Shown here one piece after another: positions 1,064 to 41,634 of a stretch of 42,103 nucleotides of DNA; positions within the stretch are counted from its first letter, which is position 1, and every line of letters starts with the position of its first letter. The DNA is taken from IMG/VR virus record IMGVR_UViG_2675903468_000011, positions 1 to 42,103 of that record. One strand, written 5' to 3'. This DNA is from a virus (lineage: Duplodnaviria > Heunggongvirae > Uroviricota > Caudoviricetes). The notes below the pieces were generated by a model that was not told the DNA's origin, ran no database searches, and saw nothing but the letters and a program-made list of their open reading frames with translations. The translations under genes and the position numbers were made by a program.

Positions 1064-1609
1064 ATGAACATTAGTGAACTTAAAAACTGTATACACTATG
1101 AAGTAATAGGTTATAAACGCCATTTTTCCTGGCGAAAAGCGATTGTTCGCGCAATAAAACACAGAAGATTACGTTATTTATTTTGGTGGCGCATAGCCAA
1201 ATACCTTTTTGATAAAGGCGGATACTGTCGGAAGATTGCGGGAAAAATAGAGCGTTTCATTCTTGATAAATATAATGTAACCGTTCCCTTAACTGTAAAT
1301 ATTGGTAAAGGGTTCGACATATCTTATCTCAATGGCGTTGTTATCGGTCACAAAGTTACAATAGGTGAAAATTGTTCAATTAAGCCTGGAGTAACTATTG
1401 GACTTCGCGGTGAATTTAATGATATGGATATTGTCATAGGAAATAATGTAACCATTGGCTGTAACGCCACCATCCTTGGTGGCAAAGTGCATATAGGGAA
1501 TAATGTAAAAATAGGAGCTCATGCATTGGTACTGCATGACATTCCTGATGACTCCACATTCATTACTAAATTTCACTCTGAAATTATTTATAACTCATCT
1601 CACACATAA
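1064..1609 (+). CDS. Hexapeptide-repeat (left-handed beta-helix) acetyltransferase, serine/sugar O-acetyltransferase-like
   Basis: Repeated [LIV]-G-x-x-x-x hexapeptides (VVIGHKVTIGENCSIKPGVTIG...VIGNNVTIGCNATILGGKVHIGNNVKIGAHALV); very AT-rich gene and upstream region, unlike surrounding phage DNA. Confidence 0.7.
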   Translation: MNISELKNCIHYEVIGYKRHFSWRKAIVRAIKHRRLRYLFWWRIAKYLFDKGGYCRKIAGKIERFILDKYNVTVPLTVNIGKGFDISYLNGVVIGHKVTIGENCSIKPGVTIGLRGEFNDMDIVIGNNVTIGCNATILGGKVHIGNNVKIGAHALVLHDIPDDSTFITKFHSEIIYNSSHT

Positions 1610-5165: not shown

Positions 5166-5518
5166 TACGCCTCCGATGTAACAGTCGTTATTCCATAAAG
5201 AGTGTCGATTTCAGCGGAAAACATGACACGTCGGGTCGTGGTATCCACCGTCGTATTGAAAGAGAGGATTGATTTAACGCCCTGCGTTTCCAGAATGCGC
5301 TTACGGATCGCCAGGTTGTAGGTTTCCGGCTTCTGCCTGCCCAGCACGGACTGGATCCATGGAGTCCCTTCGGTGGTGTCGAGAAACCATTGCCCATACC
5401 ACAATTCGAATCGCGTTTTTACCGCCTGCGCCACGGCCTCCGGTGAGTTAATCAGCCAGGTGTCATCACCGCTGCCAAAGGTGTAATCACCATCGGCGTC
5501 TTCACGTCTGTATCGCAT
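5165..5518 (-). CDS. Baseplate protein, GP46-like (gpW-like)
   Basis: 117 aa; start overlaps upstream stop; conserved position between spike and J genes. Confidence 0.55.
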   Translation of the reverse strand: MRYRREDADGDYTFGSGDDTWLINSPEAVAQAVKTRFELWYGQWFLDTTEGTPWIQSVLGRQKPETYNLAIRKRILETQGVKSILSFNTTVDTTTRRVMFSAEIDTLYGITTVTSEA

Positions 5519-6270
5519 CAGTTTACCCCATCGGTATTGCTTCCACCGCGCTGAACACCGCCATGAGTGTGCGTATCATCGATTGGCTTGCCGTTAGCCT
5601 TAACGCTCCCCAAGAACTCAACAGCACCAGTGATTTTTGAAGCCACACCAGAAACAACAGACCCCACCATGCCCCCCATCCAGGTTAACAGGCCATGAAT
5701 GGTTACTTTCTCAGAAAAGTCAGCCAGAGGGGCGACCACATCAAGCCCCCCGGGAGCGACAATTTTAATTTTCCGGGTATCAGGATTAAGCTCAAAATAG
5801 GTGCTGCCGTCATCACTACGCAACTGTGTGGCACTGGTATTAATACCGCTAATCTTCCTTGCCTGCGACTGGGGACCGACAATACAAAACGCATCCGATA
5901 AATCATGCATTCTGTCATCGACCGGCTCCTGTATCCCGCCGCTCTGCCACCAGAAATCAATACAACGATCGGCAAAAACGACAAGACACTCATTCCCGGC
6001 TTTAACCGGAAAAGTCAACGTACAGCCTCCGCCGCGCGGAAATACCACCGGCACATCCACCAGCAGGGGTAATGTCGTCGACTGGTTGATTCCATTTGAG
6101 TCCGGCTCATAGCCTTTAATCGCAGGTTGAACAACTACCGTTACCGTGTCCGGATCAAATGACTGGACAATTCCGGGCATAGAAACACGCAGCGCCGACA
6201 TGACAGAACCAGCAAGTCTTACATCGGCCTGTTCTTTGCTACCAAGTTGAGCGCTTAAAGAAACGGGCAT
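5518..6270 (-). CDS. Baseplate assembly/spike protein (gpV / Mu gp45-like)
   Basis: 250 aa; Gly-rich; C-terminal H-x-H (DDTHTHGG) as in phage spike tips. Confidence 0.55.
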   Translation of the reverse strand: MPVSLSAQLGSKEQADVRLAGSVMSALRVSMPGIVQSFDPDTVTVVVQPAIKGYEPDSNGINQSTTLPLLVDVPVVFPRGGGCTLTFPVKAGNECLVVFADRCIDFWWQSGGIQEPVDDRMHDLSDAFCIVGPQSQARKISGINTSATQLRSDDGSTYFELNPDTRKIKIVAPGGLDVVAPLADFSEKVTIHGLLTWMGGMVGSVVSGVASKITGAVEFLGSVKANGKPIDDTHTHGGVQRGGSNTDGVN

Positions 6271-6293
6271 TCATATGTCTCCAGAAAGTAAAA

Positions 6294-6387: not shown

Positions 6388-6843
6388 ATGCTTAATCATG
6401 AAGATCCACGCACAGCTTTAATTGATTTTTTGAAAAGCATTCCGCAAAACCTAAGAATAGATGAATACCTCTTCATTATTCTCATGTGTTGCGGTGAAAA
6501 CCCGCCGGAGGATTTAGACGATTTCGAACCAATCGTTGAGAAATATCTAAGCCGAACAGGATACGCTGGTTTTGGCGCTGTTATTTGCACCATAGCCATA
6601 CTGGAGCGTAGGTTATCAAGTGTAATGTTAAAACTGGAACGAGCTGAGGAGTCGTTGAAAGCATTATCTAATGAGAACGCTGATTTCTCTCAATATCCGC
6701 TGCTAAGCATGCCTCTGAAAAAGCGGCAATATGCTCAGGTTGTTGAGCGCTGGAGAGCTCTCTTACGCGGTGCGCTATCTGCTGAAAACCTTGCTTATTT
6801 CGAACAAAATCCGCAAGCGTTATCACTGGTGACAAAAGAATAA
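6388..6843 (+). CDS. Hypothetical protein (moron, opposite strand to tail operon)
   Basis: 151 aa ORF with AAGGAAAAA ribosome-binding site; low-GC; bracketed by hairpins; no recognisable domain. Confidence 0.5.
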   Translation: MLNHEDPRTALIDFLKSIPQNLRIDEYLFIILMCCGENPPEDLDDFEPIVEKYLSRTGYAGFGAVICTIAILERRLSSVMLKLERAEESLKALSNENADFSQYPLLSMPLKKRQYAQVVERWRALLRGALSAENLAYFEQNPQALSLVTKE

Positions 6844-7010
6844 AATCCCGAACTTCTTCATCTGTCATTTGCATCTCTCATAAGTTTGAGTGTAAGAAAC
6901 AATCGTTCTGCTTAAGTGCCTGCCTTCAACCAGGCACTTCTTGCACGGGAAAGAGCCAATAACTTTCGGCGCATCCATGCTGTTCTGCAGAAGCTGGACG
7001 CCAATGTAAT

Positions 7011-7319
7011 TCACTTCACCTTCCGGCAATCATACGTCCAGAACTCCCGAGGCTCGTCCATATTTTTGCGGATAACTTCAACGTTGAGGATCGCTTTTTT
7101 GTTTCGTTTGATGTAGTCCATACCTAACCAACGTCCAGTATTAGGATCAGGTAACATCCATTGCATCATGACATTATCGAAATCGTCTTTTTGTTTCAAA
7201 AAGGTCATTTTTTGTGTTTCTGGCTTTTGACCATTGATGTGCATGAGGCCATCATTACCAGCATCAAAGCGGAATGGTCCGCACTGCGTTGCCGCCGAAA
7301 CTGTTAACGGCAGGGCCAA
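7011..7319 (-). CDS. Small secreted protein; 5' end ambiguous (possible frameshift in A/T homopolymer)
   Basis: Track ORF uses TTG start (MALPLTVSAATQC...). An upstream GTG (7345) followed by an A6 run would give a canonical signal peptide MKK(S/V)IFCLFLALPLTVSAATQC only if the A-run were one base longer. Confidence 0.45.
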   Translation of the reverse strand: MALPLTVSAATQCGPFRFDAGNDGLMHINGQKPETQKMTFLKQKDDFDNVMMQWMLPDPNTGRWLGMDYIKRNKKAILNVEVIRKNMDEPREFWTYDCRKVK

Positions 7320-7341
7320 GAATAAACAAAAAATACTTTTT

Positions 7342-8376
7342 TCACTCTACATCTCCGACTTTGTCCAAAGTGCCTTTTGCCAATAGTTCTTTGCCACCTT
7401 TAGCCAGGCAAAGCAGGTCCATATACCACGCCTGCCCTCGGGTGTCGCCAGTATAATCAATGCTGCCCACAATGTAATCACCGTCAGTATTAATGCTGGC
7501 AGGCTGTGACATGCCTGGCAGACCGTTAACGTAGAGATTACCGTCGCTTTCAGACTCATCCAGTCGTGCTGGCGATTTCGCTACCTGGTCATTACTCAAA
7601 GAGGCACGGTATACAGATGCCTGATCCAGACGAATAAGCCCACCGAGCTTAATATTTGGATTAATCAGACATCTGACATTTACGCCAGCTCCCATCGTCT
7701 GCTGTGGCATACCGATAAGCCCGGTGTTAGCATTCAACACCGTAGCAACACCAATATATTTATCTTCAGGAACAATATTTACCAGATTATTTTCATACCA
7801 CCAGTTAGCCTTACACTGCCCTGCGATATGATTCATCAACCTTGATGTGTTTTGATAAACAACGCGACCCCGGGGAAATACCGTTTCAGGCATGTCAGGA
7901 ACTGCGCCGGATTCGATGCCATATGGTTCGAATGATTTCATACCCAGACTGAAAAGATCTCTGTACTTCCAGCCAGCTGCCACTGTGGTTTTCACACTTG
8001 CGTTCAGGTGGCCTTCCCAGCTGTCAATACACTGCAACATGATCCAACTGTCTGTGGCATTATCTTTACCAGTGACAGTAAAACGGATATCTCCATTGAA
8101 TATCATACCAACGTTTTCATCAGGATAATTACCTGCTGCATCCGGTTGCCCCTTGTATCCGGCAATAACCTGTATACGCGAAAACTCCTTCTGCATAATC
8201 CGGTTCTGAGTGGTAGGGGACAGGTTATAAACCTTAAAATTCCCAACGAATCCATTGAATATGGTCGCAGGCATTTTCTGAATATTGAAAGTGACTTTAA
8301 GCTCAGAAATTTTTATCCCGTCGCCCTTATCATCAACAAGCAATAATTCAAAGTGACGCATCCAGTTTTTCGACAT
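7342..8376 (-). CDS. Baseplate hub / tail protein (Mu gp44-like)
   Basis: 344 aa; position between tape-measure-proximal genes and baseplate genes; assignment by synteny and size. Confidence 0.5.
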   Translation of the reverse strand: MSKNWMRHFELLLVDDKGDGIKISELKVTFNIQKMPATIFNGFVGNFKVYNLSPTTQNRIMQKEFSRIQVIAGYKGQPDAAGNYPDENVGMIFNGDIRFTVTGKDNATDSWIMLQCIDSWEGHLNASVKTTVAAGWKYRDLFSLGMKSFEPYGIESGAVPDMPETVFPRGRVVYQNTSRLMNHIAGQCKANWWYENNLVNIVPEDKYIGVATVLNANTGLIGMPQQTMGAGVNVRCLINPNIKLGGLIRLDQASVYRASLSNDQVAKSPARLDESESDGNLYVNGLPGMSQPASINTDGDYIVGSIDYTGDTRGQAWYMDLLCLAKGGKELLAKGTLDKVGDVE

Positions 8377-28261: not shown

Positions 28262-28936
28262 ATGATTGATACTACCGATATCCTTTCTCAAAACATCAAG
28301 TACCTGATGGACAAAGCCAAGATAAGCTCGATAACTGAGCTGGCACGTCGGTTACAGCTGAACCAACCAACGCTACACAGGCTGGTATCAGGAGAGGTGA
28401 AAGATCCGAAATACGTAACGTTAAAGCAGATCGCCGACTACTTCCACGTGTCACCAATAGACCTGGCAGAAAGGAGCCTTCAAGAAATGGAGAAAGAGGA
28501 CGCGACAGGTATAAAAACGTATATTTCTCTTAGGTTTAATAAAGTACCTGTTTTGGGAAACACTCAGCTAGGCGTTGGAGGACTTTGGAGCGACACCCAA
28601 TATTCAGTAGGTAGCAGTGATGGTTTCATATACTGGCCGACAAAGGATGAAGATGCATACGCCCTGAAATGTGTTGGTGATTCAATGATGCCTAGAATCA
28701 AAGAGGGTGAGTTCGTAATCGTCGAACCCAACCACGACTACACTCCTGGTGATGAAGTACTTGTGGTTACCCGGGACGGTGAGGTCATGGTTAAAACCTT
28801 CTTGTTCGAACGCGATGGCCTGTTCCATCTAATGTCTGTAAATGAAGATCATCCACCAGTCAGAGTACCACGCGAAAACATTGAAAAAATCCATTACGTG
28901 GCGGGGATCGCCAAATCCGCGCTACGCATGTACTAA
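28262..28936 (+). CDS. CI-like repressor (HTH plus S24 LexA-type autopeptidase domain)
   Basis: 224 aa; N-terminal HTH (ITELARRLQLNQPTLHRLVSG); C-terminal S24 motifs GDSMMP (Ser nucleophile) and downstream Lys (EVMVKTF). Confidence 0.85.
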   Translation: MIDTTDILSQNIKYLMDKAKISSITELARRLQLNQPTLHRLVSGEVKDPKYVTLKQIADYFHVSPIDLAERSLQEMEKEDATGIKTYISLRFNKVPVLGNTQLGVGGLWSDTQYSVGSSDGFIYWPTKDEDAYALKCVGDSMMPRIKEGEFVIVEPNHDYTPGDEVLVVTRDGEVMVKTFLFERDGLFHLMSVNEDHPPVRVPRENIEKIHYVAGIAKSALRMY

Positions 28937-32643: not shown

Positions 32644-33243
32644 TCATTTGACCTGATACTTACTTGCATCTACTTTCAATAGCTGTAAATTATACTTATT
32701 TATAACTTCTCGCCCCGGGAAAAGAGTCCAGAACATAAAAACCGTAAACAAACAAAACAACATTACAACAACGCCAAGAACCATATAAACAGTACCCTTA
32801 TTTAGCAACAAACACAGAAATATTAGGCCATACACCAAATAAAAAATAGCTGCAATTTTAGAATACAAGCGATATCGTTTATATTTACCTTTATAACGTA
32901 TAAAAAATCTATCATATTTACATTGAATATGAGGTGCTAAGAACCACCACCGCCAAGATGGCATATCTAATTCAGAATACGTTCTTATATAAAGAATTAA
33001 CGGCCTAAGTTTCAAATTAACCATACCCAAGATGCTTTTTTTGATTTCTCTTTTTATTTCTGCCTTCATAAACTCTAACTCAGAAGGATCAATATACTCC
33101 CGATAATTTTCAAGAATATGTGAGAATTTTGTTGTTTTCGACAAAAACCAACTAACATCATTCAATAATTTATAAACACCCACTGCTGCGGTTATACCTG
33201 GGATTATGAGTCCGACAAGTGCAATAACATCTTTTATTTCCAT
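32644..33243 (-). CDS. Membrane protein, hypothetical (opposite-strand AT-rich insertion)
   Basis: 199 aa; N-terminal TM (VIALVGLIIPGITAAVGVY) and two C-terminal TMs (IAAIFYLVYGLIFLCLLL, VLGVVVMLFCLFTVFMFWTLF); markedly AT-rich; antisense to the surrounding replication operon. Confidence 0.55.
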   Translation of the reverse strand: MEIKDVIALVGLIIPGITAAVGVYKLLNDVSWFLSKTTKFSHILENYREYIDPSELEFMKAEIKREIKKSILGMVNLKLRPLILYIRTYSELDMPSWRWWFLAPHIQCKYDRFFIRYKGKYKRYRLYSKIAAIFYLVYGLIFLCLLLNKGTVYMVLGVVVMLFCLFTVFMFWTLFPGREVINKYNLQLLKVDASKYQVK

Positions 33244-35386: not shown

Positions 35387-36148
35387 ATGATGCAGGATCT
35401 CAATGAAATGGCTCTCAAATACCCACACCCTGTCGAAACTTTTCGTCAATTTTTAGTCGAATCCGGATTTGATGTTACCGGAGAAGAAAACAAAGCCGGT
35501 CATGATTGTTATCGTTTAAGTAATGGTGCCATCATAACGCTTTACCACACCGGAACGATTTTGATTCAAGGATCACAAGCGGCAAAACCAGAGGTTGAAG
35601 CCATTATTAATGAACACTTGGGTAATGCGCCAGCTCAACGAGTTCAGCCAGCCCTGGTTCAAGAGCCAGCCAAAAAGATTTTCATCGTTCACGGTCACGA
35701 CCATGCAGCAAAAGAGCAGCTTGAGCTCATTCTTCATAAGCTTGGGTTACCTGATCATTTTATTTTGCAGAATACAGGTGGTACTGGACTTACGATAATT
35801 GAAGAACTTGAGCGTGAAATTGGTCAAGGGCAGACAGCGACTCGTTTCGGCATTGTTCTTCTCACTCCCGATGATGTGGGATACTCCAAAAGAGACGGTC
35901 AAGAAGCAGCCCTGCCCAGGGCTCGTCAAAACGTAGTTCTAGAAATGGGGATGTTGTTATCATCACTCGGCCGCAGTAACGTGGTCATCTTGCAGAAGCA
36001 ACACCTTGAACAGCCTTCTGATGCTGCGGGTATTCTTTATCTCAACTTTAATGATCATGTTCGAGAAACTGTACCTCGCTTAATCCAGCGCCTTAAACAG
36101 GCCGGTTTCACATTTAATGAAGCTCAAATAGCGAACGCTTCATCTTAA
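35387..36148 (+). CDS. TIR-like domain protein (N-terminal unknown domain plus C-terminal TIR-like nucleotide-binding fold)
   Basis: 253 aa; C-terminal motifs KKIFIVHGHDHAAKEQLE, GIVLLTPDDVG, RQNVVLEMGMLLSSLGRSNVVIL resemble the bacterial TIR-like (COG4271-type) family from memory; own ribosome-binding site and downstream terminator. Confidence 0.5.
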   Translation: MMQDLNEMALKYPHPVETFRQFLVESGFDVTGEENKAGHDCYRLSNGAIITLYHTGTILIQGSQAAKPEVEAIINEHLGNAPAQRVQPALVQEPAKKIFIVHGHDHAAKEQLELILHKLGLPDHFILQNTGGTGLTIIEELEREIGQGQTATRFGIVLLTPDDVGYSKRDGQEAALPRARQNVVLEMGMLLSSLGRSNVVILQKQHLEQPSDAAGILYLNFNDHVRETVPRLIQRLKQAGFTFNEAQIANASS

Positions 36149-36170: not shown

Positions 36171-36196
36171 AAAAGCCCTGCAAATGCAGGGCTTTT
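36171..36196 (+). terminator. Rho-independent terminator
   Basis: GCCCTGCAAATGCAGGGC hairpin followed by TTTTT directly after the TIR-like gene. Confidence 0.7.
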
Positions 36197-36213
36197 TACT
36201 TGAGGTAACCCCT

Positions 36214-36432
36214 ATGTCATTTAAATATCGGGACAGTCCGCTGTACTACCGGACTGCGCGGGAGGCTTTGCGCCTTGAGCAGTCCGGTGAATACGACCTG
36301 GCGGCGAAGGTCTGGGCCAAAGCAAACCGCGAATCACGTAACGAACTTAATCAGGACTGGAGCGAGCGCCGGGCTGATTTTTGCCTGATGCAGAGCATGC
36401 GCGAAAAGCGTAAGGCGGTGGACGATGCCTAA
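36214..36432 (+). CDS. Hypothetical small helical protein
   Basis: 72 aa from ATG preceded by GAGG; the track start at 36184 lies inside the terminator. Confidence 0.4.
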   Translation: MSFKYRDSPLYYRTAREALRLEQSGEYDLAAKVWAKANRESRNELNQDWSERRADFCLMQSMREKRKAVDDA

Positions 36433-36619: not shown

Positions 36620-36888
36620 TGGCTTACGAACGTGAAAGCCTTATCGAAAAGCACCTCGTCGCCGAAGTGAAAAAGGCTGGCGGGTTGGCCTTTAAGTTCG
36701 TGTCACCCGGTCGCCGCTCGGTACCGGATCGCATTGTCCTGCTCCCCGGCGGTCGCCTCGTTTTCGTTGAATGCAAAGCACCCGGCAAACCACCACGCCC
36801 CGACCAGCTGCGCGAGCACGAACGGCTACGCGCGCTGGGCTTTACCGTGGTGGTACTGGATAGCAAAAATCTGGAGGGGATATTATAA
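36619..36888 (+). CDS. VRR-NUC domain nuclease
   Basis: 89 aa; PD-(D/E)XK-like core (PDRIVLLPGGRLVFVECKAP). Confidence 0.6.
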   Translation: MAYERESLIEKHLVAEVKKAGGLAFKFVSPGRRSVPDRIVLLPGGRLVFVECKAPGKPPRPDQLREHERLRALGFTVVVLDSKNLEGIL

Positions 36889-36889
36889 T

Positions 36890-37450
36890 TTAATCAGTGA
36901 CTTTTTGGTTCTGCTTCTGGTTCTCAAGCATACCTTGAAGTTCAGAATTATCATTTGCGGCAGTTTGCTGATGCTCATGATATTTTTCTTGCGTATAATT
37001 CCTTTCTTTTAACTTTTGTTCATAGTTATTAGAAATAATATCATGACGGTCTTGCAATACTTGTTCAAGTTGATTTTTAAAGTCGTTTATTTTATCTTCG
37101 GAGATCACATTTTTATATTTTTCAATATCACGACGAAGCTCTTTTTCTTTTTTCTTGTTAATACTTAACAACTGTCGATTAACACTGCCTAGTGACCATT
37201 TAAACCCTATCGATTTTATCCAGTGAGCCAAAAACATAGCACAACTAGGAAGTGCTAATAAAAGAAAAGGCTTAATTGAATTTAAATCAGAATCGATATG
37301 TGGGATATGCCCATCCCACGAGGCAACAAGTATGGTCAAAAGCCCTGTGACACCGCCAGCAGCTACATTTGAGAGCAGAGGAACTTTTTCGTAACTATCT
37401 GGCTTAGAGGCGCTACTCAAACGCACCTCCTTTGATTGTTCTTCCAGCAC
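36890..37450 (-). CDS. Membrane protein with C-terminal coiled coil (cassette gene C)
   Basis: 186 aa (alternative TTG start near 37420 after AAGGAGG); two TM segments (VAAGGVTGLLTILVASW, IKPFLLLALPSCAMFLAHWI) then Lys/Glu-rich heptad region; AT-rich. Confidence 0.55.
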   Translation of the reverse strand: MLEEQSKEVRLSSASKPDSYEKVPLLSNVAAGGVTGLLTILVASWDGHIPHIDSDLNSIKPFLLLALPSCAMFLAHWIKSIGFKWSLGSVNRQLLSINKKKEKELRRDIEKYKNVISEDKINDFKNQLEQVLQDRHDIISNNYEQKLKERNYTQEKYHEHQQTAANDNSELQGMLENQKQNQKVTD

Positions 37451-37661
37451 GAATAGCAGTCATCGCAATTTTGTAAAATTCGTCGTCAGAAGAAACATCG
37501 ACTACATCCCGACGAACAGTTCCTTCCGTGTCGATGTATTCAAGTACAAGATGGTGCTTAGATGTAAGCGCAAAGCGTAACCTATCAAACATCATCTTGA
37601 AAACCCAATACAATACAGGAAGAAGGCTAAAAAAAGCCAGCCAGAAAGCAAAAGCAATCAT
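37413..37661 (-). CDS. Small single-pass membrane protein (cassette gene B)
   Basis: 82 aa from ATG preceded by GGGAGGGG; N-terminal TM MIAFAFWLAFFSLLPVLYWVF plus soluble C-terminal domain; stop lies inside the SD/start of gene C. Confidence 0.5.
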   Translation of the reverse strand: MIAFAFWLAFFSLLPVLYWVFKMMFDRLRFALTSKHHLVLEYIDTEGTVRRDVVDVSSDDEFYKIAMTAIRAGRTIKGGAFE

Positions 37662-37683
37662 AGCCCCTCCCCATGTTAGCCTG

Positions 37684-38562
37684 CTATAAGATGCCGTGTA
37701 CTGTAACAACTATGTACGTTTTGTCCAGTGAATTCAAGTTTTCACGAATGAGCAAATCAACGTAGTAGGCATCGCTAAAAACACCGGGCTCTCTTCCAGT
37801 ACTAACACGTTGCAAGAACTCATTATCCTCTATAGATACGCTGATGGTTTCATCGTCATAGTTGACTCGCCAGCCAGTGTTTTTGTCCTTATGGATGGTC
37901 AGAAATGTGATTGGGGCCTCTTCAATCACCCTCTCAGACAAGGATTGCTCGACAGGAACACGCCGATATCTGAAAGGTTCAATACCATCTTCATGTACAT
38001 TAACTAACTCCACCCCTTGCTGGGTTGAAATCTTAAGCGATTCATACCCCTCCTTTTGCAAAGGGTTATGTATTAACTTCGATAACGATTTACGTATGCT
38101 CGGGGAAGCAAGTAAAGGTCGGAAATAGGAAGGAGCTATAATTTCCTCACCATCATCCATAATTATTTTACAATCTCCTTCCGCAGTTAAAGTCAACCGC
38201 CGTATTTGCCTACCATTAATTTGACGAATTAGGTCAATAAGAGTATTTCCTGCGGCAAGCGCGGCTGTGCCTCCGATACCAATAATGCTCAGAATATTCA
38301 AGTGATCAAGCGGATTTTGAATAATATCAATCAAATATTCGAATGAGCCTTCTCTGAATGGCTCAACTTCAACATTAATATTCTCGCTAGTACCATTGAC
38401 AACCAAATTAACTTCTTTCAGCAGGCTATTTAGACCATTTAATGACTCAGTTAAAACATCCAAATCTATTTTATGATCTGCTAGCGCTGGCCCATCATAT
38501 TTAACCACTAGCTTATCTATTATATTTTCTTCTTGCTGAATATCAGTGCTATTTGACGTCAT
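37684..38562 (-). CDS. Hypothetical soluble protein (cassette gene A)
   Basis: 292 aa; AAGGA ribosome-binding site; AT-rich; no recognisable motif; first gene of three-gene minus-strand cassette. Confidence 0.55.
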   Translation of the reverse strand: MTSNSTDIQQEENIIDKLVVKYDGPALADHKIDLDVLTESLNGLNSLLKEVNLVVNGTSENINVEVEPFREGSFEYLIDIIQNPLDHLNILSIIGIGGTAALAAGNTLIDLIRQINGRQIRRLTLTAEGDCKIIMDDGEEIIAPSYFRPLLASPSIRKSLSKLIHNPLQKEGYESLKISTQQGVELVNVHEDGIEPFRYRRVPVEQSLSERVIEEAPITFLTIHKDKNTGWRVNYDDETISVSIEDNEFLQRVSTGREPGVFSDAYYVDLLIRENLNSLDKTYIVVTVHGIL

Positions 38563-38639
38563 AACCGTTCCTTTTTAAGACAATAATTAAAGTTAATCAA
38601 ACCGTTGCTACTTAAATTCACTTATGAGGACACAATAAC

Positions 38640-40037
38640 ATGGCCTATGCTATGTTTTCACCCCGCCCTTATCAAGACCTCATCATCAACCACGAAATAG
38701 ACACCTTGCGCTGCAACATCTGGGCAGGCATGGGTATGGGTAAAACCGTGGCGACGCTCACCACGCTGGAAGATCTCTTTATAGCGGGAGCGGAGACTCA
38801 GCCCGCGCTGGTTCTCGCGCCGCTGCGCGTGGCGGCCAGCACCTGGCCGGATGAAGCGGTTAAATGGGGGCATCTGCGCAATATCGAGGTGCAGCCGATT
38901 GTCGGTAATGCCAAAGCGCGCGCGGCGGCGCTGGCGAACAGTAACGCCAGCGTGTTTACCATCAACTACGACAATCTGGTCTGGCTGGTCGAAGAGCTGG
39001 GCGGCCGCTGGCCGTTCGGTACCGTCATCCCCGACGAAAGCACCCGACTGAAATCCTTCCGGCTGCGCGGGGGCGGTAAGCGCGCGGCGGCGCTGGGCAA
39101 GGTGGCGCATAAGTATGTCCGGCGCTGGATGAATCTCACCGGTACACCAGCGCCGAATGGCCTGGTTGATTTGTGGGGGCAGGCGTGGTTTGTGGATCAG
39201 GGGCAGCGCCTCGGGCGAACTTACGGCGCCTTTACCTCCCGCTGGTTCAACTCAATTCAGTTTCCGGGGCAGAGCTGGACGAAGCTGGAGCCTTTCGCAC
39301 ACTCGCAGGACGAAATACAGCGTGCACTGGCCGACGTGACTATCTCCCTTGATGCGGCCGACTGGTTCGATATCAAAGAGCCCATCCATAACGTGATCCG
39401 CGTGGACATGCCGCCGAAGGCACGCCAGCAGTATCGTGAAATGGAAAAGGAAATGTTTCTCGAACTGAACGGCGAAGGCATCGAAGCGCCGAACGCTGCG
39501 GCAAAGACAGTGAAGTGTCTGCAAATTGCCAGCGGCGCAGTGTACACCGACGACGCCGGGAGCTGGTCAGAACTGCACGACGCGAAGCTGCAGGCGCTGG
39601 ACAGTATTCTCACCGAAGCAGCTGGCGCACCGGTGCTGGTGGCCTATCACTGGAAACACGATCTTGAACGCTTGCTTAAAGCATTCCCTCGCGGTCGTCA
39701 CCTCGACCAGGATCCACAGACACTGCGCGACTGGAATTCAGGAAAGATTCCTGTTCTCTTTGCACACCCTGCCAGCGCGGGCCACGGCCTGAACATGCAG
39801 GACGGCGGGAATATACTGGTATTTTTCTCACACTGGTGGGACCTGGAGCAGTATCAGCAAATTATTGAACGTATCGGCTCAACCAGACAGATACAGGCCG
39901 GACACAATCGTCCGGTATTTATTCACCACATTATTGCTGCCGACACTATGGACGAAATGGTGATGGAGCGGCGCAACTCAAAACGAACAGTGCAGGACAT
40001 CCTGCTCGATGCCATGAAAAAGAGAGGTATAGCATGA
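38640..40037 (+). CDS. SNF2/DEAD-like helicase
   Basis: 465 aa; Walker A GMGMGKT, DEAH-like box VIPDESTRLK, motif LTGTPAPNG; higher GC than neighbours. Confidence 0.8.
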   Translation: MAYAMFSPRPYQDLIINHEIDTLRCNIWAGMGMGKTVATLTTLEDLFIAGAETQPALVLAPLRVAASTWPDEAVKWGHLRNIEVQPIVGNAKARAAALANSNASVFTINYDNLVWLVEELGGRWPFGTVIPDESTRLKSFRLRGGGKRAAALGKVAHKYVRRWMNLTGTPAPNGLVDLWGQAWFVDQGQRLGRTYGAFTSRWFNSIQFPGQSWTKLEPFAHSQDEIQRALADVTISLDAADWFDIKEPIHNVIRVDMPPKARQQYREMEKEMFLELNGEGIEAPNAAAKTVKCLQIASGAVYTDDAGSWSELHDAKLQALDSILTEAAGAPVLVAYHWKHDLERLLKAFPRGRHLDQDPQTLRDWNSGKIPVLFAHPASAGHGLNMQDGGNILVFFSHWWDLEQYQQIIERIGSTRQIQAGHNRPVFIHHIIAADTMDEMVMERRNSKRTVQDILLDAMKKRGIA

Positions 40038-40234
40038 GCGAGAAACCCGACGATTTACTCACCCCGGATGAAGTATGCCAAAAGTTAGGTATTACACAGA
40101 AAACGCTATGTGAGTGGAATATTAAGCATCGTCATCGGGCTATCCTGGCACCAATTCGTTTCAGTGCAAAAGTAGTTCGTTATGAGCGCCGAAATGTCGA
40201 CGCTTTTATTCAAAAATGTCGCAGCCAGTATTAA
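40034..40234 (+). CDS. AlpA-family HTH regulator (excisionase-like)
   Basis: 66 aa; LTPDEVCQKLGITQKTLCEWN helix-turn-helix; adjacent and convergent to integrase. Confidence 0.6.
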   Translation: MSEKPDDLLTPDEVCQKLGITQKTLCEWNIKHRHRAILAPIRFSAKVVRYERRNVDAFIQKCRSQY

Positions 40235-41634
40235 CCTCGCCGCCGTAGCAATGCCACCTGCGCAAGTATGCTCCGCTCGTGAGCCTCGAAAGCTTCGCGC
40301 TTCAACGCAATCTCTTCCTGTAAAATCTCATCAGAAAAGTCGTAATGTTCTGCCATCGGGTCATCTGACTTGCTGGAGTGGTGAAGGCAAAGGAGGCTGA
40401 TTTCCCTTCGGTCTGAGCGGGAATAGCCTCTTTCCTTCATCAAGGCAATAACATTGCTCTTAAGGAATTTACGGCACATCGTATTAAATGCACCGTCTTT
40501 CCCTTTAACAGTCCCATCATGTTTTATTCCTTTTACAGCCCCGTCCGGGCTGTATGTTTTCACCAGCTTATCCAGTGATCGTTTTGAAAATGGCTGCATT
40601 GGCTCACGTGGCTGCAAAAATACATAATCCCTGTTGCACTCAGGAACTGAATCACGCCAGGCTTTCTGCTCGTCGATAATCCGCCGGATCTCAGGCGTTA
40701 TCGGCAGGCGGAAAGCCTTTTGTGTTTTCATAGCCCCTCGCATGCCGATAACCCCTTCCGGATAAACAATTTCACCAGCCTCCTCGTAAACGTAGTCCCA
40801 GCGCAGGTTATGGACATTAATCGGACGAACACCAGTGATGATCATGAAGCGAACAGCATTCTTCTGGTGTACAGAGGTGCAGGCAGCAACATTGAGCCAG
40901 AGTCGGGCGATTGATTCAATATCGGTAAAAAGCCGTGTGGGGGTGGGTTTCTGTACGCGGGAGGAAACATAATCATCTGGCAAACTGGCGGCAACATTGC
41001 GGCCGTTGCAAAGAATAGGTGCGCAGAACTTCCAGAACCGACGGAGCTCGGCAAACAACTCCAGGGCGTTATTGTTCGAGCGAGTGGCGATCCACTCGTC
41101 CAGCACTTCCACCAGCCGACTGTATGTTACGTCGCTGAACACCTCGCGCTCGCCGAACGTTGCTTTAATCCGGTCGATACGCACCCCGTAGGTTGTGAAA
41201 CTGTCCGGGCTCAGCTTCTGCCGGGCGACTTTGGCTTTGAGGTCATCCCGGTACATTTCCAGCGCTGCATGTACGGACTCTGCTCGCAGGCCACCGTCAG
41301 CCATACCTAGCGCTTTTTCGCGCGCCAGCTGGATAGCGAGCTCCGGCCACTCGCCGAGCTTTTTACCTTTGAGGCCCATCTTTTTTGGAAACTCGGCGTA
41401 AAATGTAACCTTACCGGCTTTGCTGAAATCGATACGGAGATAGTTCTCTTTTTCGTATTTGGAACGGCGAGCCACGCCGGAAGCAGCGAGGATGATTTTG
41501 GCGGCAGCAACACAGATTTTCATGTGTGCGCTGGTATAGGGGGGTTTACAGGCGTCCCATTTTTCAGATGCGGCTAAAACATCGTCATTATTGGGGCTAT
41601 CCGGATTATGTGTTACAGTGCGCGGCATTCTCAA
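40231..41634 (-). CDS. int: Tyrosine integrase
   Basis: 467 aa; catalytic-domain motifs TGVRPINV (box I Arg) and C-terminal LHHSSKSDDPMAEHY (His...Tyr region, comparable to lambda Int LLGHKSDTMASQY). Confidence 0.85.
   Translation of the reverse strand: MRMPRTVTHNPDSPNNDDVLAASEKWDACKPPYTSAHMKICVAAAKIILAASGVARRSKYEKENYLRIDFSKAGKVTFYAEFPKKMGLKGKKLGEWPELAIQLAREKALGMADGGLRAESVHAALEMYRDDLKAKVARQKLSPDSFTTYGVRIDRIKATFGEREVFSDVTYSRLVEVLDEWIATRSNNNALELFAELRRFWKFCAPILCNGRNVAASLPDDYVSSRVQKPTPTRLFTDIESIARLWLNVAACTSVHQKNAVRFMIITGVRPINVHNLRWDYVYEEAGEIVYPEGVIGMRGAMKTQKAFRLPITPEIRRIIDEQKAWRDSVPECNRDYVFLQPREPMQPFSKRSLDKLVKTYSPDGAVKGIKHDGTVKGKDGAFNTMCRKFLKSNVIALMKERGYSRSDRREISLLCLHHSSKSDDPMAEHYDFSDEILQEEIALKREAFEAHERSILAQVALLRRRG

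Follow-up and report, generated by a model that had tools for sequence, protein, structure and literature searches.

Among described phage-exclusion systems, lambda RexA/RexB combines a cytoplasmic protein of ~280-290 amino acids (aa) with a small inner-membrane partner, RexB, which has four transmembrane (TM) segments. Known blockers of genome entry, such as T4 Imm, P22 SieA, and HK97 gp15-type proteins, are usually single small membrane proteins. Kiwa (KwaA/KwaB) is a small operon of accessory regions in which membrane protein(s) are joined by a cytoplasmic partner without a known enzymatic domain. In addition, the PDC systems of PADLOC comprise 145 single- and multi-gene candidates that were nominated via their embedding in BREX, DISARM, and type I restriction-modification (RM) loci (bioRxiv 10.1101/2024.01.29.577857). 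The locus described here lies in a stretch of 42,103 nucleotides (nt), hereafter the window (positions 1 to 42,103 of the IMG/VR virus record IMGVR_UViG_2675903468_000011; Caudoviricetes), which is a prophage integrated beside yfhL, with a tyrosine integrase at 40231-41634 and a cI-like repressor at 28262-28936. Protein identities point to Salmonella enterica or a near enterobacterial relative as the probable host. Three minus-strand open reading frames (ORFs), named A, B, and C, fill positions 36890-38562 between the VRR-NUC and SNF2 helicase genes. They encode a PDC-S42-like protein and two small membrane proteins, form one strictly linked unit, and may function, at a probability that we put at roughly 0.5, as a lysogen-expressed phage-exclusion or abortive-infection module.

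Linkage and distribution of the three genes

The trio clade is defined here as the gamma-proteobacterial homologs of A with at least 43% identity. In all 38 clade loci examined, which represent at least seven unrelated genomic contexts, the three genes directly follow one another, always as A-B-C. Among the IMG/VR loci, all 21 with A at this level of identity have matches to the B and C hidden Markov models (HMMs) directly downstream, and all 13 with a distant A (24-30% identity) have neither. Thirteen further loci, from E. coli, Serratia, Proteus, Aeromonas, Vibrio, Pantoea ananatis, Photobacterium salinisoli, and one metagenome-assembled genome, all contain A-B-C in this order, and the compared loci L001, L059, and L060 also carry it. 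In Proteus, Aeromonas, and Vibrio, an A homolog with 45-53% identity is followed by an 80-aa protein with one TM segment and a 157-174-aa protein with two; the B homologs of these genera have 32-40% identity and the C homologs 19-32%. An initial annotation of this DNA, made from the letters alone, had proposed co-occurrence across genomes as a check, and the trio is indeed present in several genera outside the window prophage. Furthermore, a profile search with diverse C sequences returned only 27 clusters, none of them outside the trio; the new one that was looked up adjoined A and B, and no C-like effector paired with another sensor was found. Such an obligate tie of one A clade to two dedicated membrane proteins was not found in the databases and literature searched.

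The trio has a narrow and scattered distribution. It was found in 19 of 5,426 complete E. coli genomes, always on the chromosome, and in three of 100,044 species-representative genomes with the patterns used. Accessory defense genes are usually rare and patchy, as this trio is. One of the compared loci, in E. coli O157:H16 Res13-Lact-PEA12-26 (L054, 5908-6499), is a natural C-defective variant, in which a frameshift splits C, both A and B are undamaged, and many insertion sequence (IS) elements interrupt the element around them.

Gene structure and insertion site

The initial annotation described three overlapping minus-strand ORFs, each with its own Shine-Dalgarno (SD) sequence, with the stop of B embedded at the start of C and with far lower GC than the flanking genes. 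Most of this description holds. The ORFs lie where they had been placed, an SD sequence precedes all three starts, and B and C overlap by 8 nt, with the SD of C within the 3' end of B; however, A and B do not overlap but are separated by 22 nt with the supported starts (Table 1). The GC content of the trio is 0.36-0.41, with a GC3 of 0.31-0.37, as compared with 0.55-0.58 and 0.60-0.67, respectively, for polA, VRR-NUC, and the helicase gene.

For B, the longest ORF (37709..37413; 98 aa) begins with TTG. The true start is almost certainly the ATG at 37661, which has GGGGAGGGG ahead of it and is where the E. coli RefSeq annotation and the PHROG profile begin; the phrog_15510 alignment begins at residue 17 of the 98-aa ORF. 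For C, the longest ORF (37450..36890; 186 aa) begins with GTG, and the TTG at 37420 is the likely start, because it is preceded by AAAGGAGG and the PHROG and E. coli RefSeq models begin there (the phrog_15878 alignment begins at residue 11). The position of the C SD inside the end of B suggests that the translation of B and C may be coupled, and a B/C overlap of 4-20 nt recurs in the Proteus, Aeromonas, Vibrio, and Serratia loci. Compared with the E. coli copy (~85% nucleotide identity), the lengths of A, B, and C are all identical and the dN/dS values are low (0.056, 0.12, and 0.057, respectively); A, B, and C are therefore real genes under strong purifying selection.

The cassette is a precise insertion. 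The slot is empty in the related E. coli prophage L002, whose VRR-NUC gene overlaps SNF2 without intervening DNA; in a three-way alignment, the extra DNA falls exactly from the VRR-NUC stop to the helicase start. This empty-site comparator establishes the antisense insertion into the replication module that had been proposed initially. Relative to L002, the 5' end of the helicase gene (window 38640-38654) was replaced upon insertion: the SNF2 start reads GTGAGCTCAGTAT, overlapping the VRR-NUC stop, in the empty-site prophage and ATGGCCTATGCTATG / ATGGACTATGCTATA in the window and the E. coli trio carriers. The differing starts indicate that the start and first few codons of the helicase gene in these carriers came with the cassette. 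No meaningful repeats were found in the flanks of the insert.

Among the E. coli relatives, the VRR-NUC|helicase slot is empty or contains 104-aa, 243-aa, or trio cargo, always antisense, and is a cargo hotspot. Cargo variation alone does not make it a defense hotspot. Neither the 104-aa nor the 243-aa cargo has a PADLOC or Pfam match, which neither strengthens nor weakens a defense-hotspot interpretation.

Table 1. Features of the cassette, segments of protein A, and genomic contexts of the trio (positions refer to the window; L numbers are compared loci).
Feature	Position (strand)	Description	Basis or loci
Inserted cassette	~36888-38640	about 1.75 kb	alignment of the window with L002 (empty) and L001 (trio)
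Gene A	38562..37684 (-)	ATG start, 292 aa	ORF call
Gene B	37661..37413 (-)	ATG start, 82 aa	SD GGGGAGGGG, phrog_15510 match, dN/dS
Gene C	37420..36890 (-)	TTG start, 176 aa	SD AAAGGAGG, phrog_15878 match, dN/dS
B/C overlap	37420-37413 (-)	8 nt, TTGAGTAG; B stop TAG 37415-37413, C start TTG 37420-37418	
Region upstream of A	38563..38639 (-)	77 nt, AT-rich, divergent from the helicase start, within inserted DNA; presumed promoter/5' untranslated region of A	
A, residues 1-292	37684..38562 (-)	acidic, isoelectric point (pI) 4.7; PDC-S42 / NF053583 / DUF7946-like family	
A, residues 17-85	38308..38514 (-)	N-terminal alpha/beta domain; conserved Y-D-G-x-A-L-x-x-H motif	
A, residues 88-112	38227..38301 (-)	conserved Gly/Ala-rich hydrophobic helical hairpin, then basic GRQIRR; low predicted local distance difference test (pLDDT) score	
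A, residues 117-292	37687..38214 (-)	two beta-barrel domains (~120-190, 208-291)	
Context: antisense between VRR-NUC and helicase genes			window, L001, L020-25
Context: directly downstream of, and co-oriented with, a cI-like repressor (helix-turn-helix [HTH] + Peptidase_S24)			L003-5, L037-38, L014-15, L039-40
Context: directly after the integrase at prophage ends			L026-34, L036, L054, L055
Context: tail/baseplate module of a Pantoea-type relative of the window prophage, on the tail-gene strand			L035, L057
Context: after UmuD-like and DinI genes at an E. coli prophage end			L016-18
Context: end of an Aeromonas integrative element			L006, L007
Context: Vibrio island containing VspR			L008

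Family and predicted structure of protein A

None of the three proteins had been assigned to a recognizable family initially. For A, this view is overturned. Residues 17-273 match positions 5-269 of 302 in the PADLOC PDC-S42 HMM PDLC05015 (E=3.2e-37, 126.6 bits), with weaker matches to PDLC05016 and PDLC05017. A also matches NCBIfam NF053583, 'LAPAL motif-containing putative phage structural protein', over residues 19-289 (profile positions 2-288 of 292; 193.6 bits against a cutoff of 60), as well as phrog_3243 (E=3e-95). The match to Pfam DUF7946 (PF25678) has 24.8 bits, below the 27-bit cutoff, and covers only profile positions 2-71 of 183; homologs of A with 80% identity carry PF25678 matches.

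The family of A is large. A profile search covering 1.84 billion cluster representatives gave 3,622 relatives at E<=1e-3 and 2,217 at E<=1e-10, the ~3,600 relatives being 50%-identity clusters. Among the 150 best relatives listed, nearly all are 275-325 aa in length and match over the full length. The trio clade is a small divergent branch, with about seven of the ~3,600 cluster representatives, and the LAPAL motif is absent from it: the D-L-A-P-A-L-L-A of distant members aligns to V-L-T-E-S-L-N-G (alignment A1). Several distant members without B and C adjoin HTH repressor-like genes, just downstream. One distant homolog without B and C (28% identity; L009/L010) has two divergent, overlapping genes for small membrane proteins (78 and 95 aa; 5424-5944, minus strand) upstream and a gene for a Pro-rich 231-aa protein with an HTH-like C-terminal end (6951-7646, plus strand) downstream. 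Genes of a polysaccharide-biosynthesis cluster surround this locus, and a RelB/YafQ pair is close by.

Because PDC-S42 is defined as a single-gene candidate and thousands of family members (24-30% identity) lack B and C, A may be supposed to act alone, with B and C as an unrelated neighboring pair. This explanation is very improbable given the co-occurrence in every clade locus, with fixed order and a B/C overlap kept despite identities as low as 45% (A), 32% (B), and 19% (C) and unrelated flanks. Moreover, C-family proteins were never found without A.

In the AlphaFold2 (AF2) model of A, built from an alignment of 21 sequences (pLDDT 77; predicted template modeling [pTM] score 0.62), the N-terminal domain consists of a strand (residues 17-23), a helix (34-56), and a further strand region (63-79). 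This domain is the sole part that matches DUF7946 (Pfam stretch 19-81), and Y22, G24, and L27 are invariant in alignment A1; G72, S73, W231, R232, D246, and F249 are further invariant residues of A. Both C-terminal barrels are predicted to have a b1-b2-b3-alpha-b4-b5 topology, like that of the oligonucleotide/oligosaccharide-binding (OB) fold. The pI values of A and its homologs are 4.7-5.4, and the C-terminal barrel of A has a pI of 4.6. The structure matches of A in BFVD are all uncharacterized (phage) proteins.

The initial description of A as soluble stands as probable for a cytoplasmic protein and is made uncertain by the hairpin at residues 88-112, which has a borderline maximum Kyte-Doolittle (KD) value (KD19 = 1.54). 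Most of the 55 family members compared have their hydrophobic maximum in this segment (median KD19 1.54; 18 of 55 reach 1.6), and such a conserved, family-wide maximum suggests that A may be peripherally associated with the membrane rather than simply soluble. The hairpin is possibly an element that docks to the membrane or to B/C. A bitopic topology for A was considered and not adopted, because the segment is of borderline hydrophobicity and a Gly-rich turn and polar residues interrupt it.

Predicted topology of proteins B and C

For B and C, the lack of a recognizable family noted initially is upheld: B matches phrog_15510 and C matches phrog_15878, both PHROGs without assigned function. The initial assignment of one TM segment to B and two to C agrees with hydropathy and, for C, with the AF2 model, in which C also has long helices. 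B has a single N-terminal TM helix (KD peak 2.3 at residue 1), followed by a predicted cytoplasmic domain of ~55 aa with a conserved D-x-E-F-Y-x-x-A-M-x-A-I-R motif. The basic residues after the TM helix predict an N-out/C-in topology. The two TM helices of C correspond to KD maxima at residues 19 and 52, and the AF2 model of this protein (pLDDT 67) contains helices at residues 16-33, 50-102, 108-152, and 159-173. The interhelix loop is acidic and free of K/R, and is thus predicted to be periplasmic, with both termini of C inside. Past the TM helices, the tail has a K/R-rich stretch and then a K/E-rich long helical hairpin, both of which are predicted to be cytoplasmic.

Genomic contexts and mobility

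The cassette is a self-contained, horizontally mobile 'moron' of gamma-proteobacterial prophages, satellites, and islands that moves between unrelated slots (Table 1). The copies downstream of a cI-like repressor are in lambdoid prophages of Proteus and Serratia and in a third lineage (L039/40). Among the copies next to integrases, those of E. coli L054 and L055 are in elements integrated at tRNA-Arg. In the Aeromonas element, the left flank in one sample contains SoFic (5e-118), a type I restriction endonuclease (1.7e-270), and an Mrr_N fragment, and in the other sample a type VI secretion system (T6SS) Hcp-PAAR-VgrG set. Taken together, these contexts fit lysogen-expressed 'moron' positions as the probable natural place of the cassette.

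The tail proteins of the Pantoea-type relative are 51-90% identical to those of the window. In L035, the trio occupies the slot of window ORF 6388-6843, between the homologs of 7017-7325 and 5788-6288. In the window itself, this slot contains a 151-aa ORF (6388-6843, plus strand) that is antisense in the tail/baseplate module and has no family matches.

The same-strand location inside a tail/baseplate module of one Pantoea-type prophage, together with the name of NF053583 and the score of A well above its cutoff, may be taken to indicate that A is a virion structural protein, with B and C as assembly accessories. We consider this extremely improbable. At the corresponding tail site, close relatives of the Pantoea-type phage, including the window prophage, carry other cargo and not the trio. 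Other trio copies are found antisense within a replication module, beside repressor or integrase genes, or in islands of Vibrio and Aeromonas that are not phages. Furthermore, related prophages with an empty slot exist, the LAPAL motif is not kept in the trio clade, and the BFVD matches are all uncharacterized. The initial annotation had stated that homology of A to a structural protein would speak against a defense system; the NCBIfam name nominally provides such a homology, but a structural role is at odds with where the trio is located.

A putative phage-exclusion module

A defensive or exclusion function of the trio is favored by the PDC-S42 match, the position downstream of a repressor in three lineages, and the one copy beside SoFic and type I restriction genes. 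The strict linkage, the mobility between slots, the variable cargo of the VRR-NUC|helicase slot, the rare and patchy spread, and the purifying selection were also counted towards this reading. The original proposal of an undescribed defense system thus receives circumstantial support from the PDC-S42 match, the cI position, and the SoFic/RM neighbor, but the family of A is already catalogued. Likewise, a comparison with PADLOC agrees with novelty in that no named system is matched by A, B, or C, and disagrees in that A matches the candidate PDC-S42.

In the mechanism that we propose, A would be a largely cytoplasmic sensing or regulatory subunit, and B and C, made in coupled amounts, would form a small inner-membrane complex whose cytoplasmic parts contact A. 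The predicted topology of B and C is compatible with such contacts. Upon an infection cue, A would switch B/C to a state that perturbs the inner membrane, by ion leak or depolarization in the manner of lambda RexAB, and the infection would be aborted. This specific mechanism, in which A gates a membrane leak of B/C, is tentative. Similarly speculative is a three-component arrangement in which the tandem-barrel A docks via its Gly/Ala hairpin onto a complex of B and C with three TM segments and gates it on sensing infection. We infer expression in the lysogen, the interaction of A with B/C, the trigger, the membrane effect, and defense itself.

Alternatively, and less likely, B and C may block genome entry, with A as an assembly or regulatory factor, which would be a non-abortive superinfection exclusion without cell death. 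Two small inner-membrane proteins encoded by prophages in lysogen-type slots, in a compact module without a recognizable enzymatic effector domain, would suit this role. However, a conserved 292-aa, three-domain A from a family that is mostly without B and C would be unexpected for it, and no homology to a known Sie protein was found in the PADLOC, Pfam, and PHROGs annotations; an entry block is thus quite unlikely.

A moron without a defense role is an unlikely explanation as well, for which an envelope conversion or fitness factor, an addiction module, or a modulator of induction or lysis timing may be envisaged. AT-rich antisense prophage cargo is not always defensive, and the same prophage has a moron of the hexapeptide acetyltransferase type. 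In addition, C is broadly holin/antiholin-like in having two TM helices and a charged C-terminal tail, and one strain has a frameshifted C with intact A and B. On the other hand, the PDC-S42 assignment is based on embedding in BREX, DISARM, and RM loci, the placement after cI mirrors that of rexAB, and in the loci examined the trio is never within lysis modules and is also present in non-phage islands.

Several results weigh against a defensive function of the trio. The PDC systems were explicitly called untested by the authors of the source (bioRxiv 10.1101/2024.01.29.577857), and our literature searches found no paper on PDC-S42, DUF7946, PF25678, the LAPAL motif, NF053583, the PHROG identifiers, or the E. 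coli accessions; the PADLOC-embedding supplements contain no PDC-S42 entry. Lysogenic expression is assumed from position only, with no promoter identified: promoter-like sites ahead of A, and consensus matches for promoters and terminators, do not exceed their frequency in shuffled sequences, and no promoter or conserved upstream stretch ahead of A is common to the trio contexts. The adjacency to SoFic and RM genes in Aeromonas may merely mark an integration site, as the same element is beside T6SS genes elsewhere. The distant homologs of A without B and C imply that the family can perform its core function in the absence of the membrane pair. With respect to the proteins themselves, A has no significant fold match in the Protein Data Bank (PDB), Foldseek included, and only a generic resemblance to OB-like barrels, and B and C matched nothing in PADLOC, Pfam, or NCBIfam. 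A role of A as a nucleic-acid sensor via its barrels was kept as a weak possibility only, and binding of DNA or other nucleic acids by A is doubtful because A (pI 4.7) and its homologs are acidic. Finally, homology of A to RexA and of C to RexB was rejected: hhalign of A (alignment A1) against lambda RexA gave a probability of 0.3% over 20 aligned columns, and BLASTP of C against RexB gave E=3.8 over seven residues, i.e., no relationship.

Other cargo in the same prophage

The window has a second candidate defense cargo in its replication module, a gene at 35387-36148 (plus strand) whose 253-aa product contains a TIR domain of the CAP12/Pycsar type (Pfam PF10137, E=5.8e-31). This protein matches PADLOC PDC-S35 almost end to end (E=2.6e-109). 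The gene is located between the DNA polymerase gene and an ANR/PerC-like gene (36184-36432) and has a GC3 of 0.37, as compared with ~0.6 in its flanks. Among the E. coli relatives, it is present in L011 and L013 and absent in L001, L002, and L012. The presence of this TIR gene in the same prophage was counted towards a defensive reading of the trio.

A third slot for antisense cargo separates the DUF2815 gene from the DNA polymerase gene. In the window, it contains a 199-aa ORF (32644-33243, minus strand) with a GC content of 0.32; the product is strongly hydrophobic (maximum KD 2.67), with one TM segment in its N-terminal part and about two in its C-terminal part. E. coli relatives have ORFs of similar size in this slot (199 aa in L012 and 209 aa in L001). 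Neither the 199-aa ORF nor the 209-aa neighbor-slot cargo has a Pfam or PADLOC match, and this cargo likewise does not bear on a defense-hotspot interpretation. At the left end of the window, beyond the tail-fiber assembly gene (1620-2192; Caudo_TAP), are ORFs at 1-507 and 1064-1609 (both plus strand), one of which encodes a DUF2335 membrane protein and the other a hexapeptide-repeat acetyltransferase (GC 0.36). The acetyltransferase looks like a moron of the lysogenic-conversion type, possibly for acetylation of surface polysaccharides.

Comparison with known systems

The family of A is already catalogued as a defense candidate; as far as the databases and literature searched show, the new features are the obligate membrane pair of one clade and the slot-to-slot behavior of its cassette. 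This DUF7946/LAPAL family comprises thousands of clusters, often located by prophage repressors, with no solved structure or known biochemistry. If the trio is protective, the untested PADLOC candidate PDC-S42 would become a validated system, one clade of A would be shown to need two dedicated membrane partners, and the function of the DUF7946/LAPAL family would become accessible. If the docking and gating scheme is true, it would provide the first functional handle on the ~3,600-cluster DUF7946/PDC-S42 family, and the members without B and C, which are most of the family, may reach the membrane via the same hairpin. The cassette is small (1.75 kb) and self-contained and should be easy to clone, and natural empty-site comparators exist. 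Even if it is not defensive, the locus documents a bounded VRR-NUC|helicase cargo slot and further antisense slots in this prophage lineage.

In its overall design, the trio is comparable to Kiwa, from which it differs in the number of TM segments and in protein sizes; A, B, and C have no PADLOC match to that system. With the OB-fold binders RPA70, SSB/PriB, and HIN-200, A has only a generic fold resemblance, without sequence similarity, and is acidic. The similarity to the NF053583/DUF7946 family is extensive with respect to NF053583 and limited to the first ~70 positions of DUF7946; however, the LAPAL motif reads L-T-E-S-L in the trio clade and the structural label is contradicted by the contexts. 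Among defense candidates, A belongs with PDC-S42, the HMM of which it matches over nearly its whole length. That family was nominated from genomic embedding as a single-gene candidate, whereas A of the trio clade is always accompanied by B and C (38 of 38 loci), both of which are absent from PADLOC.

A counterpart in layout is lambda RexA/RexB. The two systems differ in that the window cassette is not beside the cI gene and in that the membrane part of the trio consists of two proteins (with one and two TM segments, respectively) instead of one multi-pass RexB. The likeness lies in the combination of a cytoplasmic protein of comparable size with small inner-membrane protein(s), and in the location of the trio, which in Proteus, Serratia, and a third lineage immediately follows a cI-like repressor gene, as rexA-rexB does in lambda. 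If the trio is protective, it would represent another Rex-like design of a sensor and membrane effectors without homology to Rex, which bears on convergence.

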